Shown here one piece after another: positions 4,263 to 32,521 of a stretch of DNA of 64,000 nucleotides. The translations under genes were made by a program, and so were the position numbers. Each line of letters starts with the position of its first letter. Position 1 is the stretch's first letter. Source of the stretch: an uncultured archaeon (GTDB lineage Archaea; Thermoplasmatota; Thermoplasmata; Thermoplasmatales; Thermoplasmataceae). The stretch is taken from assembly GCA_000965745.1 (NCBI GenBank), contig CP009479.1, forward strand, positions 704,001 to 768,000. Direction: 5' to 3'. The notes beneath the pieces are model-generated. The model made no database searches, was not told where the DNA came from, and worked only from the letters and a program-made list of their open reading frames with translations.

Positions 4263-5180
4263 ATGTATCCTGAAGAGATAATTATAGGAATATTTTCATA
4301 CAATGAGGGAAATAATTTAAAGAGGATAGTTCAGCATATTTTGAGTGAGGAACCACGACTTTCCAATCAAATTCTCCTTTTGGATGACAGTGATGATCCT
4401 TACAGTCTACAGGTCTTGAAAGAACTAACAGAGAAATACGGTATAAGAAAAATATCAAACAAAGAAAGAAAAGGGAAAATCTTTTCCTACAATACTCTTT
4501 TAAAATACTTTTTAGAATCCAATGCAGATGTACTAGTACATTTTGATGCGGATTTGATTCTCGAATCTGGAGTAATCAAAAAGCTCTACAATAATATTGC
4601 TAGTGGAATATTCGATGTCACTGGATGCATGAATAGATCACTTCTAGGACGAACCCTATTTGAAAGATCGGTGAGGTTGTTATCAGTTATGGGGGAAAGA
4701 GCTAGAATGGATGGTACAATGGATTTGCCACTGGTAGGCCATAACGGAGCTTATAGCAGAAGGGCTGCCAATATTATTTACCCTGTTCCTACAGGGGGGA
4801 TAAACGAGGAACTTTATGTTGTTTCCATAATGTTATCCAATGGCCTGAAAGCTGGCTTGACCAGGGATGCACTTTCATACTTCAGAGTTCCATCTAACAT
4901 GAATGATTATATCATGTCTCACAGGAGACTCGCCGCTCAGACCAAGAAATTCATGAGCATAAACGAGAGTCGATCTGGGGGGAAAATCCTTGAAAAGGCT
5001 TTAGAGAAGACAAGAATAAGAATGTCGATGAGGCATGTGTATGCTTCAGTAAGTAAGGATATAGCAGGACTCATTTTGTCTCCATACATACTTGCCATCA
5101 GAAAAGCAGCAATTTGGAGTTCGGGAATCAGTAATGAAGATGAATGGGAAATAGTCAGCAGCACTAAGAATCTGGATTAA
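4263..5180 (+). CDS. Glycosyltransferase family 2
   Basis: IFSYNE, LDDSDD and FDAD motifs. Confidence 0.85.
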   Translation: MYPEEIIIGIFSYNEGNNLKRIVQHILSEEPRLSNQILLLDDSDDPYSLQVLKELTEKYGIRKISNKERKGKIFSYNTLLKYFLESNADVLVHFDADLILESGVIKKLYNNIASGIFDVTGCMNRSLLGRTLFERSVRLLSVMGERARMDGTMDLPLVGHNGAYSRRAANIIYPVPTGGINEELYVVSIMLSNGLKAGLTRDALSYFRVPSNMNDYIMSHRRLAAQTKKFMSINESRSGGKILEKALEKTRIRMSMRHVYASVSKDIAGLILSPYILAIRKAAIWSSGISNEDEWEIVSSTKNLD

Positions 5181-5434
5181 GAATTCTCAACGTATGTGGT
5201 TTCTCCATATAAATTCTAAATCGTTTTTTTATCTAATCTATTTGCCTCACCTATGAGATTCCATAAATACGAGTAATATTACCGTCTGCTTTTTCAATGA
5301 TGTTGAAGGGACTAAAATTTAGAGTTGTTTTTAATTTGACTTTATCGATCACCAATCACTGAAGATCCACTTACTTCGTTGAAGTGAATTTTGGTTTGGA
5401 CCCCTATTGTGGGAGTAGATTGTCTTCTTAGCTA

Positions 5435-6355
5435 TCATCTCTCTTCTATTAGATTTTCCTTCCATGTTTCATAAACCTCCTTTGGTGCTCTGTATCCGAT
5501 CGCCGAATGCAGTCTCTCATTGTTGTAGAATGCAATGAACCTGTCGATTGTGCCATCTGAATCCTTGAACGATGAGAACTCAAACCTTCTGATCACTTCC
5601 TTCTCCAGGATAGAGTTGAACGACTCGATGTGCGCATCTTCCTTTGGTGTGGCGGGATGAATCCTCTCATGCTCGATGTTCGAGGAGGAGAGGAACTGTT
5701 CCACCATCCTGGATACAAACTGCGTGCCATTGTCGCTCCTTATTCTGACCTTTGATACTGCATTCCCTCCTCGATCCAGGAAAGCGAAGTCCATCGCCAT
5801 CTTCACATCCCTTGAGGTGCAGTGATATCCCATGTAATGGCCGACAACCTCCCTGGTGAAGCAATCAATTATGGCGAACAGGTAGGCTGTCCTGTTCTCT
5901 CCCTGTATGTAGACATACTTGATGTCCATCTCCCAGACTTCATTTGGTGCATGAACATCCACAACGGACTCAACAACCCTCTTTGCAGGACTGCGATAGT
6001 TGTATGTGTGGTTGAGAAGGTTATTCTCCTTCATGAGACGGAAAACCTTCTTCCTGTTGATCCTGTACCCGGATCTCTGAAGGTGCTTTGTCACCTTCTT
6101 GTATCCATAGCAGACAAACTCCCTTGAGAGCAGTTCCCTGATCTCATCGAGTACCTGATTGTCAGGAACAATGATCTTACCGGCAGTGGAGGAGAGTTCC
6201 GTTTTCACAGTACGTTTCCTCCCTCTCCTCATTCCGATCATTGAAGGCTTCCGGTAATAGGTGCTCTCAGGAATGTGGAGAAGTTCCAGAATCCTTGAGA
6301 CATTGAGGCCTCTGGTTCTATATTGTTGGATCAGGACTGCCGCCTCCTTCTTTTT
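5435..6355 (-). CDS. IS3 transposase OrfB (integrase core), -1 frame to OrfA
   Basis: YGYKKV, WEMDIKY, IRSDNGTQF, IESFN and YNNERLHSAIGY motifs. The frame opens at the A7 run at the end of orfA. Confidence 0.9.
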   Translation of the reverse strand, partial: KKKEAAVLIQQYRTRGLNVSRILELLHIPESTYYRKPSMIGMRRGRKRTVKTELSSTAGKIIVPDNQVLDEIRELLSREFVCYGYKKVTKHLQRSGYRINRKKVFRLMKENNLLNHTYNYRSPAKRVVESVVDVHAPNEVWEMDIKYVYIQGENRTAYLFAIIDCFTREVVGHYMGYHCTSRDVKMAMDFAFLDRGGNAVSKVRIRSDNGTQFVSRMVEQFLSSSNIEHERIHPATPKEDAHIESFNSILEKEVIRRFEFSSFKDSDGTIDRFIAFYNNERLHSAIGYRAPKEVYETWKENLIEER

Positions 6356-6636
6356 TTATATGCTTCCTGCAGCATTTCCACCTCGAGTTCCCTCTCGGCA
6401 AGCATCTTCTTCAACCGTTCATTCTCCTTCTTCAGCTTCCTCACGCTTGGATCCGAGTGCCTGGTTCTCGATCTGAGGCCTTCCACACCATACGTGTCGA
6501 ATATCTCCTTCCAGCGGTAGAACATTGTTGGATCCGCACCATATTTCCTGCATGTCTCAACAACCTGGCCCTTCTCCTTGATCTCGTTGATCAGTGCGAG
6601 TTTCTCCTCTGCCTTCCATCGTCTCCGCTCGGTCAT
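6331..6636 (-). CDS. IS3 transposase OrfA (HTH + leucine zipper)
   Basis: MTERRRWKAEEK...FYRWK...LKKENERLKKMLAE; homologous to 31301-31603. Confidence 0.88.
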   Translation of the reverse strand: MTERRRWKAEEKLALINEIKEKGQVVETCRKYGADPTMFYRWKEIFDTYGVEGLRSRTRHSDPSVRKLKKENERLKKMLAERELEVEMLQEAYKKRRRRQS

Positions 6637-6642
6637 TGTTCC

Positions 6643-8540
6643 GTAGGGTAAAAACCTGGATTTCTCCAGGCCCTTCCACATCAAACCGTACGGTCGGTTT
6701 TCCCGAATACGGCTTTCCGGTGCGCTTCACCACGCGGCATTCGACCTGGATAGGAGATTCTGCCTGTCATTTTCATAAGACCCGTTTTTCGTGCGACACT
6801 CTTAGTATCTCCTTTCCAGGAGACCCTTGGGATCTTATGCTGATGGCTGTAGAACTTAGAGACCTTCCACTCGACAAACATGTGCAGGGTGGAGTACTGT
6901 TTGCTAGCATTTGTATGGTTGAAGTAGTTTGTCCATCCCCTGATCAGGGAGTTCAACTCATCGATCAGAGTGTTCATCGATTTGATGTGCGTCAGGTGTA
7001 TCGATGTGAGTGCTTTCACCTTTTCCCTGAATTTTCTCATGGATCCAGCGGAAGGATAGACCTTTGTAACTGGCTTGCCCGATACATGGGACACTTTCCT
7101 GATGAAGTGGAATCCCAGAAAATCAAAACCATCTTCGGCAGTGATCACACTGGACTTCTCCCTGTTCGGTTCAAGTCCGAGAAGGGATATTATCCTTTCC
7201 AGCGTTTCTGCCACTGCCTGTGGATCCTTGTTCGTCAGTGCGAGAAGATCGTCTGCATATCGAACAAGATGGGCGCTATGCTTGAGCGGGCTTTCCATTC
7301 CCCTCCTTGTCCAGAGTGAGTCAAGCTCATTGAGGTATATGTTAGCCAGAAGAGGCGAGATAACGCCTCCCTGCGGAGTGCCCTGTTCAGGATAACTCGT
7401 GTTCCCCTGGAAGACGATACCTGCCCTGAGCCATTCCCTGATGAGCTTGATCACATATGGATCAGTGATTCGCTTCATGACGGAGAAGACCATCTTCTCG
7501 TGATCAATGTGGTCAAAGAACCCCTTGATATCCATGTCCACTATGTTCGTGTATCCAAGGTTGAGCAGATGACGGATCTTCTCCGAGGCCTGCATTGCAG
7601 ATCTTCCGGGTCGGTACCCGAAGCTGCAGTCCTTGAAATCCGCTTCGAATATTGGCTCTATGATGGATTTCACCGCCTGCTGAACCACCCTGTCCCGGAT
7701 CGTTGGAATACCCAGAGGCCGAAGCTTTCCATCGCCCTTGGGTATGAAGACCCGCTTCACTTTTGGTATCCTGTATGTCTTCATTCGAAGCTGCTGCTGT
7801 ATCTCTGTTAGGAATTGATCGACTCCGCGATTTTCTATGTCCTCTATTGTCTCGCCATCAACGCCAGGTGCTCCATCATTCCCTGCAACTGCTTTCCATG
7901 CGGCTCTCAAAACATCGAGCCTGCACACCTTGTCGTGTAGGGAATAAAATCTTCTTTGTTCGTCCGTCTTGGCCGCGTGGTAGAGCCCATTCTGCAGGGA
8001 TTCGAGTGTTTTCAATCTTCGTACCCCCTTTCGAGAGAATAGAATACTCCTCCCCTGTAAATGGGCATGCACAGAGCAGGGTTCCTTCCCTTGTCTGGAG
8101 TTGTGCTGTCTCCGGATTCATTGGTACTATTAACCCCTCCGACTCCTTGCATCTCATTGCGATCCCTTTCCCTTACGGTTATAGGATCAGCTACCACTAC
8201 TCAACCCTCCAAGGCATGTTCGTGGAAGCTGCAAGGTCTCCCGATTTAGCGCATATGACATTCCTCTCTTGCCGTCGGCAGGACACCGGGAAGGCGGGTA
8301 TTCCAATGTGGCTGTACAGAATACCCATGGCAGTCTTCGCCTTTTGGGGACGGGCTCGACCCTTCCATTTGGGCTCACGGTGCTATGTTCCGTTCTCTCT
8401 CGATGCGGCCAGAGATTTTGCAGAATGGATAACTTCACACCACCCATCACTGGGAAGCATGTATCCTCTGCTATGTGGCTGAACCACTGATTTCCACAGT
8501 AAGACTTACACTCACTTGCCATATGTTTTCCTCGGCGTGC
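6643..8540 (-). mobile_element. Group II intron (ribozyme + RT ORF)
   Basis: Domain V AAGCCGTATTCGGGAAAACCGACCGTACGGTTT and domain VI hairpin CCTGGA-GAAA-TCCAGG ending ...TACCCTAC. The 5' end was placed by comparison with the intron-less IS copy at 31223. Confidence 0.9.
6681..8015 (-). CDS. ltrA: Group II intron reverse transcriptase/maturase without endonuclease domain
   Basis: [49 protein letters not shown] and RGWTNYF motifs; no HNH. Probable TTG start at 8015 (ORF is open from 8072). Confidence 0.93.
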
Positions 8541-8730
8541 CCCCAGACCCTCTTCAATATGGTCTTTAATATATTAATATCACTATTAGTCAATCTTCTC
8601 CATTGATTTAAGGGGCCAGACCAATTTGTTGGTAAGGTAATTCATATTCACTTGTAAATATGACTTGTTGTTTATGAATGTTTGATGATGTAAACACACT
8701 TACGGTATTGCTCAAATTCCATTTTGGGGT

Positions 8731-9645
8731 ATGTGTGAGTCTTCTTACTTATTGAAAGTAGAAGAAAATTTTTATCTTATATATTCTCATGGAAATGTTG
8801 TGTTTTCCATAGGTCATATAACCTCAGTAATAAGGTATAGAAAAGCCTTTAGAAATTACCCCACTGTTTTTATTAAGTTGTTGAAAGGAAAATATGATTT
8901 TCAGGTAATTATGAGAAAAGATAAAAACAGAATTAGAACATATAGTCAATCGTTATTATATTTCTTGTCTTTTGCACCCGAGGGTTACTATTACGATAGT
9001 AAAGACGATATTCTAAGATTTAATTTCAATGGGAGGTCTGTTTATCTCAAAGGTACACTTAAAAACGGCGACGTAGGTGGCATTTTTGGGGATATGAGTT
9101 ATGATATTAATGTTAGGGATAAAGTAGTCCTTGATGTTGGTGCAAACATTGGGGACAGTGCCGTTTTTTTCGCCTTAAGTGGTGCAAAGAGAGTAATAGC
9201 AATCGAACCAATAAAGAAGAACTTTGACTTGTTAACTGAAAATGTACGAGTTAATAACCTAGAAGGAATAATAATTCCCATTTTTGGCGGGCTCGGTGCT
9301 CAAAGATCTCAAATCTTCATTGATCAAGACAATCTTGTTGGGACAAACATTAATCTTTCGGAAAGTGCGTATATTGAAGGTTTTAAGACCGAGATCTATT
9401 CATTCGGTGAAATTTTGACTAGATATGAATGCTCAGTAATGAAAATTGACTGTGAAGGGTGTGAATATGACTTATTTGAAAAAGTCTCACTTTCCGATGT
9501 TCATCTACTTGATATTATAGTGGGCGAATATCACTCGAATGGGGTCTCGGAGATTGAGAAAATATTGGGAGAAAAAGCAGGCTTCCATGTTGACATTAGA
9601 GGCAACTCCAAGAATGGTATCTTCAAAGCAACTAAAGAAAATTGA
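8731..9645 (+). CDS. FkbM-family SAM-dependent methyltransferase
   Basis: VLDVGANIG and MKIDCEGCE motifs. Confidence 0.9.
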   Translation: MCESSYLLKVEENFYLIYSHGNVVFSIGHITSVIRYRKAFRNYPTVFIKLLKGKYDFQVIMRKDKNRIRTYSQSLLYFLSFAPEGYYYDSKDDILRFNFNGRSVYLKGTLKNGDVGGIFGDMSYDINVRDKVVLDVGANIGDSAVFFALSGAKRVIAIEPIKKNFDLLTENVRVNNLEGIIIPIFGGLGAQRSQIFIDQDNLVGTNINLSESAYIEGFKTEIYSFGEILTRYECSVMKIDCEGCEYDLFEKVSLSDVHLLDIIVGEYHSNGVSEIEKILGEKAGFHVDIRGNSKNGIFKATKEN

Positions 9646-31222: not shown

Positions 31223-31685
31223 TGTGCTGGCCCCTTAAATAATTGGACAACATTGGCTTATAGTAATAGAAAAGTATATATAGGGGGGTTCTAGGGGGAA
31301 ATGACTCGCAGATACTGGAAAGCGGAAGAGAAACTGGCACTCATCAACGAGATCAAAGAAAGCGGACATGTCGTTGAAACCTGCAGAAAATATTCTGTGG
31401 ATCCATCCATGTTCTACCGTTGGAAACAGGCCTTCGATGCACTAGGCATGGATGGGCTCAGATCCCGTACAAGGTCCTTGGAACCAGGCCTCAGAAAGCT
31501 GAAGAAGGAGAACGAGAGATTGAAGAAGATGCTTGCAGAGAAGGAACTGGAGGTATCACTGCTCCAGGAAGCATATAAAAAAACGAGGAGGAAACCGCGT
31601 TGATCAATGAGTATGCTGGACGTGGGCTCTCAACGACCAGAATCCTGGAACTTCTAAGGATACCACGGAGCACATTCTATCATAC
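31223..31685 (+). mobile_element. Truncated IS3-family element (left end, orfA, start of orfB), no intron
   Basis: TGTGCTGGCCCCTTAAAT end matches the 8623 end. Same TAT-A7 slippery site; orfB similarity stops after about 30 codons. Confidence 0.85.
31301..31603 (+). CDS. IS3 transposase OrfA
   Basis: Closely similar to 6331-6636. Confidence 0.85.
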   Translation: MTRRYWKAEEKLALINEIKESGHVVETCRKYSVDPSMFYRWKQAFDALGMDGLRSRTRSLEPGLRKLKKENERLKKMLAEKELEVSLLQEAYKKTRRKPR

Positions 31686-31726: not shown

Positions 31727-32521
31727 TTGGAATCGCAAAACCTTGCTGCTCAAGAATTTGAGCTTCCTGCTAATGTTTCTATAATCATTCCAGCATACAA
31801 CGAAGAAGAACGGATCGGGCCTGTCCTAAACGAAATCCTGGATTTTTGCAAACTAAATTCCTTGAATTTGCAAGTTATAGTATCCATCGACGGTGATGAC
31901 AGCACTGAGCAGATTGTATCCGATTTGTTTGATGATGGAATGAATACTCTTGCCATCGTAAATAGAAAGAGAATGGGCAAGGGAAGGGCGATCAAAAGAG
32001 CCCTGGAGTTTGCAGAAGGAGATTACGTGATATTGATGGACGCAGATGGATCGGTGAGCTTCAAAGACCTGATTGACCATTTTCCACTAATTTATGATCA
32101 CGACTTGGTGAATTTTAACCGGTACCTGGATGTAAGTAACTCAATACCACCATATAGGCGTTTCTTCAGCAGAGCATTCAACTTTCTAGTCAAAGGTTTC
32201 CTGGGAATCAAGATAATCGATACCCAGTGCGGGTACAAGATAGCAAGAAAGGACAGATTAGTGGGGCTGTTCAGGAAGGTAACCATATCAAACGCATTCT
32301 TTGACGTCTTCGTCCACTACTATGCAAAGAGAGAAAACTACATCGTAAAGGAGGTGCCAATCCACTACACGCACGGCGAAGGGAGCACCTTCAACATTGC
32401 TGCCCTGATTTTCAGTGGCCTAATCTCCCTGGTAGCCATAATGATAAGAAACTCACCACTCTGGAAATACATTCCGAAGAAGGTGGAAGAGCTTTACTAC
32501 GAAAAATTCTCTGAATTCTGA
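31727..32521 (+). CDS. Polyprenyl(dolichyl)-phosphate glycosyltransferase, GT2
   Basis: IIIPAYNEE, GKGRA, MDADGS and DTQCGYK motifs. Confidence 0.88.
   Translation: MESQNLAAQEFELPANVSIIIPAYNEEERIGPVLNEILDFCKLNSLNLQVIVSIDGDDSTEQIVSDLFDDGMNTLAIVNRKRMGKGRAIKRALEFAEGDYVILMDADGSVSFKDLIDHFPLIYDHDLVNFNRYLDVSNSIPPYRRFFSRAFNFLVKGFLGIKIIDTQCGYKIARKDRLVGLFRKVTISNAFFDVFVHYYAKRENYIVKEVPIHYTHGEGSTFNIAALIFSGLISLVAIMIRNSPLWKYIPKKVEELYYEKFSEF

Follow-up and report, generated by a model that had tools for sequence, protein, structure and literature searches.

Group II introns lodged within insertion sequences (ISs) are textbook examples of layered genetic parasites. A locus of this kind lies in a stretch of 64,000 nucleotides (nt) from an uncultured archaeon (hereinafter the window; bases 704001-768000 of a genome that consists of one contig of 2.23 Mb) and raises the question of what becomes of transposase expression when an intron inserts 6 nt upstream of the ATG of orfA, the first transposase gene, and splits a run of six guanines (G6) that resembles a Shine-Dalgarno (SD) element. 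The answer that we consider probable, albeit well short of certain, is that the leader of an IS3-family element was the target of reverse splicing by a mobile group II intron, which split the likely SD element of the IS; splicing would restore it. The arrangement as such is already known from bacteria; distinct here are the archaeal host, the leader position across a likely SD element, and the GCACG end of the intron. The documented cases of introns within ISs come, to our knowledge, from bacteria, where the intron interrupts the reading frame of the transposase.

The intron is recognizable both by its ribozyme and by its protein (Table 1). The Rfam matches to domains V/VI and to the core of domain I exceed the gathering scores (40 for RF00029; 49 for RF02005 and RF02003), and the intron-encoded open reading frame (ORF) scores 395 bits with TIGR04416 (cut-off 300) and matches RVT_1 (2.2e-38) and GIIM (8.5e-13). 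Homologs show ATG where this ORF has its TTG start, and an identical 444-amino acid reverse transcriptase (RT) product is on record (P0001). The RT frame, whose codons extend from 8015 to 6684, passes through domain V (6681-6717), with the stop codon at the 3' edge of that domain.

Eight related introns, 65-75% identical to this one, come from this genome and six other genomes of the family; all of them begin with GCACGYCGAGG and end with UUACCCUAC, in unrelated flanks, and the 3' end ...CCCUAC, which conforms to the AY rule, is common to about a dozen relatives. The alignment column of exon-binding site 1 (EBS1) pairs in register with exon positions -5 to -1 in six of the eight relatives, in six different sequences, i.e., the two sites covary. 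Comparison of these loci shows the insertion site to be recognized through predicted base pairing between EBS1 and intron-binding site 1 (IBS1). Given the ends shared by the eight relatives, the covariation of EBS1 and IBS1, and a contig that skips the 1898 nt of the intron (see below), the boundaries are, by all comparative evidence, exact to the base. For EBS2, no block of columns covarying with exon positions -6 to -18 was detected in the eight sequences, a small sample.

The 5' end is the unusual part of the intron. Instead of GUGYG, the intron starts with GCACG, and so do all eight members of the lineage (GCACG(C/T)CGAGG loci are found at 8536-8540 on the minus strand of the window and at L002, L037, L038, L039, L046, L048 and L049). 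In more distant relatives from Thermoplasmata, the homologous place is taken by GUGCG (GUGCGCCGCCGAAG). Because the lineage members each carry an EBS1 that matches their own 5' exon, the variant end appears to be compatible with mobility. In the review literature, GUGYG is the rule, and introns that splice away from it are described, the GCACG variant not being among them (PMC4424553). The GUGAG at 8515, 25 nt further into the intron, had been suspected as the 5' splice site, the Rfam match to domain I beginning just past it. It is not conserved in the relatives; GCACGYCGAGG is conserved, and similarity begins exactly at 8540.

According to an earlier note made from the sequence of the window, removal of 6643-8540 joins TCTGGGG to GGAACAATG. 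This is reproduced, the predicted spliced junction being ...UCUGGGG joined to GGAACAAUG (as DNA, GGGUCUGGGG followed by GGAACAAUGACC), and an empty site exists in metagenomic DNA: a contig from run X8 (soil) joins 6641/2 to 8540/1, with exactly 1898 nt missing and another flank beyond. The shorter side of this joint is 29 nt, as expected for a branch between unitigs. In the same run, a second contig crosses the filled 3' junction (6613-6709), and a third stops exactly at 6642, a pattern that a de Bruijn graph is expected to show for an insertion polymorphism. Diverged intron-free variants from runs X2, X3 and X6 read ...GGGGTCTGGGG, ...GTCTGGGA and ...TATGAGG, respectively, each followed by GGAACAATG. 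Intron-free alleles of the same IS exist in nature. The search for IS copies with and without the intron that the earlier note proposed thus yielded empty and filled sites in metagenomes, although only a single filled copy in the genome. These contigs also bear on whether a repeat misassembly joined the intron to the IS. Mobile elements are often misassembled, and the genome appears to be derived from a soil metagenome; however, two independent assemblies (L152 and L153) have the same order RT-orfA-orfB-glycosyltransferase, contigs from runs of three studies span the junctions, and a contig that is 88% identical (L149, discussed below) has the same junction, so that an artefact is exceedingly improbable.

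The host of the intron is an intact IS3-family element, as the earlier note had proposed along with the intron itself; the Rfam matches, the RT, the open frames, the repeats and the ATTT duplication all bear this out. The element extends from 8623 to 5392, all parts of the composite being on the minus strand, in the order ATTT, left repeat, leader, intron, GGAACA, orfA ATG, A7, orfB, right repeat, ATTT. IS3-family elements typically have repeats ending in TG...CA, a target duplication of 3-5 bp and a length of about 1.2-1.5 kb. This one has orfA and orfB with a -1 frameshift, ends of the TG...CA type, a 4-bp duplication and, minus the intron, a length of 1334 bp. The inverted repeats are imperfect (about 25 of 34 positions match, with two gaps), and both ends begin with TGG. 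The probability of finding ATTT on both flanks by chance is about 0.008, and 4-bp duplications (AAAG, CCTT) also surround related IS copies in the same genome. Metagenome contigs exit to other flanks exactly at 5392 and 8623-8625; therefore, the IS ends are real, and the IS or close variants of it occupy other places in other populations. The leader comprises 83 nt from 8623 and ends with ...GGGUCUGGGG at 8541. Downstream of the slippery site, the -1 frame of orfB is uninterrupted as far as the stop codon at 5437-5435; orfB contains the D, D and E motifs and scores 193.5 bits with NF033516, the NCBIfam IS3 transposase model (cut-off 160).

Table 1. Features of the intron-IS composite and of a related IS fragment in the window
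Feature	Position	Strand	Basis or remark
Group II intron, 1898 nt, 5' GCACG ... CCCUAC 3'	6643..8540	-	Rfam; ends shared with relatives; empty-site contig
Domains V/VI, AGC triad	6643..6717	-	RF00029, 40.9 bits, full-length model match
Candidate branch A in domain VI	6649	-	7 nt from intron 3' end
Domain I core	8277..8508	-	RF02005, 63.3 bits, E 7.8e-17; RF02003, 51.8 bits
RT/maturase, 444 amino acids, TTG start (8015), YADD, lacking an endonuclease domain	6681..8015	-	
EBS1 loop CCCCAAA, in hairpin	8343..8349	-	CCCCA pairs with exon UGGGG
IBS1 UGGGG	8541..8545	-	Last five 5'-exon bases; first four G of G6
First six bases of 3' exon, GGAACA	6637..6642	-	Between splice site and ATG; last two G of G6
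AT-rich TATA-like box of IS leader, ATATTAATATATTAAA	8565..8580	-	Fixed distance from ATG in 12 intron-less relatives
orfA, 101 amino acids, HTH_Tnp_1, stop included	6331..6636	-	Pfam PF01527, 1.6e-13; translation
A7 slippery site, TATAAAAAAAGAAGG in orfA frame	6351..6357	-	Conserved in related IS and L149
orfB frame, rve/DDE transposase core, read as OrfAB fusion by -1 frameshift	5435..6355	-	Pfam rve, 3.9e-21
Left inverted repeat, TGGTCTGGCCCC...	8584..8623	-	Metagenome contigs exit to other flanks at 8623-8625
Right inverted repeat, TGGTTTGGACCCC...	5392..5431	+	Aligns with left repeat; metagenome contigs diverge exactly at 5392
Target-site duplication ATTT, low-coordinate copy	5388..5391	.	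Repeated at 8624-8627
Target-site duplication ATTT, high-coordinate copy	8624..8627	.	Repeated at 5388-5391
5' fragment of another IS3-family element, with left repeat, leader and orfA; truncated	31223..31600	+	78% identity, first 300 nt only

In the empty-site or spliced form, the sequence G6-AACA-AUG is restored, with G6 at positions -10 to -5 from the start codon. The 3' end of the 16S rRNA is ...GGAUCACCUCCU, and the duplex that the leader is calculated to form with this tail has an energy of -9.7 kcal/mol for the empty site versus -3.5 kcal/mol for the unspliced form; only 9% of the ORF upstream regions reach -10 kcal/mol or lower. Across 1441 long ORFs of the genome, SD-like 5-mers peak at positions -15 to -9 from the start and TATA-like 6-mers at -30 to -27, and the presence of both peaks indicates that the genome uses SD-led as well as leaderless initiation. 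A natural metagenome variant of the leader carries GGGAGGAACAATG, the canonical GGAGG, at the position of the G-run, and GGGGG is found 8 nt upstream of the TTG of the RT ORF. Considering the pairing energy, the position within the SD window, the GGAGG variant and the GGGGG that precedes the RT ORF, the G6 run most likely serves as an SD element, in line with the claim of the earlier note that the intron splits an SD-like G-run. The competing view is that the mRNA of the IS has little or no leader, in which case the G-run is not a ribosome-binding site, and the intron, sitting in the spacer between promoter and start codon, affects start geometry rather than SD pairing. The genome-wide AT-rich peak at -34 to -23 from start codons, which implies many leaderless genes, is compatible with this view, and in a related IS from the same genome (75% identical, see below) the TATATATA box starts at -26 and the proximal G5 at -7 to -3 is too near the ATG for a typical SD element. 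However, in the IS clade considered here, the strong AT box is about 10 nt further upstream (-46 to -31), which would leave a short leader that includes the G-run; furthermore, the G-run is nearly invariant across relatives of 75-88% identity, whereas the adjacent bases vary, a canonical GGAGG is present in one variant, and the duplex of -9.7 kcal/mol falls within the top tenth of genes. On balance, a leaderless IS mRNA is improbable.

That the TATA-like box of the IS leader acts as a promoter is suggested by the AT-rich peak that start codons have around position -28 throughout the genome. The following scenario, in which the G6 run does function as an SD element, can be proposed. An endonuclease-less intron of the GCACG lineage, which inhabits Thermoplasmatales-like archaea, would reverse-splice into the IS leader, being targeted by pairing of its EBS1 loop (CCCCA or CCCCAAA) with U(U/C)UGGGG, a conserved sequence of the leader. 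Oriented like the transposase genes and placed just 3' of the TATA-like box, the intron would be transcribed from the IS promoter. Only the spliced RNA would regain G6-AACA-AUG and be translated efficiently, so that the intron may throttle, rather than abolish, transposase synthesis via the efficiency of splicing, and transposition of the IS would carry the intron along.

The persistence of the composite can be assessed with a second, diverged copy. A scan of metagenomes for the 18-nt filled junction gives 12 matches, of which 11 are due to chance and only one, the contig L149, contains the intron-IS junction. This contig aligns across the same junction without gaps and is 88.0% identical in the intron part and 88.3% identical in the IS part. 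Between the two composites, the RT, orfA and orfB have ratios of nonsynonymous to synonymous substitution rates (dN/dS) of 0.14, 0.23 and 0.09, respectively, and the domain VI stem of L149 contains two compensatory base-pair changes. Given the equal divergence and the purifying selection, the intron-IS pair therefore seems to persist as a unit; most simply, the composite has been passed on as a whole, and the intron and the IS have both remained functional. Such continued function argues against the intron abolishing transposase expression. For the suggestion of the earlier note that the intron may travel with the IS, L149 thus offers some support, although the composite is single-copy in this genome. 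In L149, a TAA within domain V makes the RT ORF ten codons shorter.

Several observations weigh against the scenario outlined above. The spliced junction and its effect on translation are predicted from DNA, and the GCACG end departs from GUGYG, catalytic competence being deduced from conservation and past mobility. In addition to the single copy in this genome, no other filled sites were found in 102 other genomes of the family, and the identical RT, which is present in contigs of four assemblies, is confined to this locus wherever the flanks are visible; because it is always at the same locus, there is no sign that the 100%-identical composite has moved. The equal divergence in L149, which is one contig of 1389 nt, could reflect repeated homing between co-circulating partners. 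Finally, the AT box has its center about 38 nt upstream of the ATG, as against about 28 nt upstream of start codons for the leaderless signal of the genome at large; hence, the transcript is predicted to start at about -11 (+/- 3), coinciding with IBS1, so that the 5' exon of transcripts from the IS promoter may be only 2-8 nt long, with the G-run among the first bases of the mRNA.

This predicted start, together with the single copy and the single locus of the identical RT, is what would be expected if the insertion were a dead end, i.e., if transcripts from the IS promoter had no usable 5' exon, splicing failed and this IS copy were silenced; moreover, the gene upstream of the IS is divergent, which makes read-through from a neighbor unlikely. 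However, the three ORFs are all intact, as are the ribozyme motifs, a start at 8545 or further upstream would still place the 5-nt IBS1 within the transcript, and neither dN/dS of 0.09-0.23 for the transposase and the RT nor the compensatory changes in domain VI of L149 are expected of a silenced pair. We regard such a dead end as unlikely and favor splicing that restores the SD element.

The intron-less relatives of the IS shed light on the choice of the target. In other genomes of the family, the IS has twelve intron-free relatives, the closest ones being 88% identical over the leader and the start of orfA; they have in common the AT-rich box, always equally far away, and the motif GGGGGTYTGGGG followed by GGAACAATG. 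All 7 nt of the EBS1 loop are complementary to UUUGGGG, the commonest leader variant of these intron-less relatives from other genera, and because of this perfect 7-bp complement the leader of this IS clade looks like the cognate homing site of the intron. By contrast, the related introns lie in unrelated, mostly intergenic contexts (next to genes for GCV_T, sulfatase and major facilitator superfamily proteins and to genes of unknown function), and among those examined for context none is inside an IS3 element, so IS-specificity is not a trait of the intron lineage as a whole. A stronger version of the scenario, namely that intron and IS form a co-evolving composite in acidophilic archaea, in which EBS1 is tuned to the leader, splicing across the SD element, at the very start of the mRNA, gates transposase synthesis and the GCACG splice site works, is tentative, and we lean towards doubting it. 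If it is true, a working GCACG 5' splice site would widen the accepted sequence rules of group II catalysis.

The 5' exons of three related introns from different genomes (L037, L048 and L049) share TATGGCG(T/A)CA 10-20 nt before the insertion, which hints at another conserved homing site. At C1:1299571-1301800 (L002-L005), an intron of 70% identity is nested 1-2 bases past the domain V hairpin of a partial group II intron, and its 3' exon likewise begins with GGGAAC.

A second IS in this genome is 75% identical to the host IS and has the leader TCTAGGGGGAAATG. The earlier note had used the copy at about 31290 as an intron-less relative; the alignment of its G-run holds, but the copy turns out to be a truncated piece of this different IS, and the intron-less relatives of 88% identity serve the comparison better. 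The truncated copy and three full ones (genome positions 2219231-2220546, 1640866-1642189 and 1110162-1111477) are all intron-free. The full copy at 2219231-2220546 (L007, L013) has no matching 4-bp duplication (GTTT versus CAGA), in contrast to the AAAG and CCTT of the other two, and the mismatched flanks may trace recombination between IS copies. The truncated copy directly precedes a glycosyltransferase-like ORF (31727-32521).

Retrohoming of group II introns into IS elements is established in bacteria (PMC3522654; PMC4238363), and the earlier note had mentioned that introns inside bacterial ISs are known. In particular, E.c.I4 and other enterobacterial introns retrohome into the IS3-like elements IS629, IS911, ISEc16 and ISEc31 (PMC3522654). 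Like the present intron, E.c.I4 encodes an RT and occupies a specific site in an IS3-family element that is itself transposable, with filled and empty sites coexisting. However, introns of the E.c.I4 type reside within the bacterial transposase coding sequence, whereas the present one lies in an untranslated leader of an archaeal element, 6 nt before the ATG, starts with GCACG, and is seen at only one filled site per genome. RmInt1, which also lacks an endonuclease domain, has its natural homing site in ISRm2011-2 of Sinorhizobium meliloti (PMC4238363, PMC3035460); according to one proposal, transposase expression and IS spread are limited by how efficiently RmInt1 splices (PMC4238363). The present intron resembles RmInt1 in the missing endonuclease domain and in homing into an insertion sequence, but RmInt1 is inserted within an ORF, and its splicing and mobility have been demonstrated experimentally, whereas here both are deduced. 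The host IS of RmInt1 is from a different family, IS630/Tc1. Among archaea, the group II introns of Methanosarcina reportedly home into other group II introns (Dai and Zimmerly 2003, cited in PMC8919778). The lineage considered here shares with them the archaeal host and a preference for other mobile elements as targets (cf. the nested relative in this genome), but differs in the host order, in having an IS rather than an intron as the target, and in the non-canonical 5' end. The earlier note held that archaeal group II introns are described mainly from Methanosarcina; they are not confined to that genus, since a published count puts them in 15% of the genomes of Thermoplasmatota (PMC8919778). 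Within the collection of papers searched, none describes group II introns of Thermoplasmatales genera. IS3 elements in 1842 archaeal genomes are on record (PMC13343696).

With respect to classification, the absence of an endonuclease domain and the short IBS1 resemble class IIC introns (B.h.I1, E. rectale, GsI-IIC), as may the lack of a detectable EBS2 in the small set of eight sequences. The closest solved RTs also belong to class IIC (7uim, 4.6e-59; 6ar1, 1.6e-57), ahead of T.el4h and LtrA, a pointer that reflects the nearest solved structures rather than a class-labelled reference set. The AGC triad of domain V differs from class IIC, for which CGC is typical, and no consistent hairpin or terminator of the IIC style was found in the 50 nt upstream of the eight insertion sites (z between -1.6 and +1.3). 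A domain V hairpin does immediately precede one of the relatives.

The 16S gene of the host scores 1524 bits with the archaeal small-subunit rRNA model versus 1120 bits with the bacterial one, a search for McrA found no match in the genome, and the named nearest kin of the intron protein are from Cuniculiplasma, 'E-plasma' and Thermoplasmataceae; hence, the host is a non-methanogenic, Thermoplasmatales-like archaeon. In a search for amoA, the control genomes gave no match. DNA of this genome is found repeatedly in soil metagenomes. The locus offers a simple system for asking whether splicing gates translation initiation where transcription and translation are coupled, and the lineage a naturally mobile set of introns for testing how far the 5' GUGYG rule bends.

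As for the local setting, the IS is located in an AT-rich spacer, with a glycosyltransferase gene (4263-5180) on one side and a divergent ORF (8731-9645) on the other. The G+C content of the mobile DNA (5392-8623) is 49%, versus 43% for the window and 46% for the genome.

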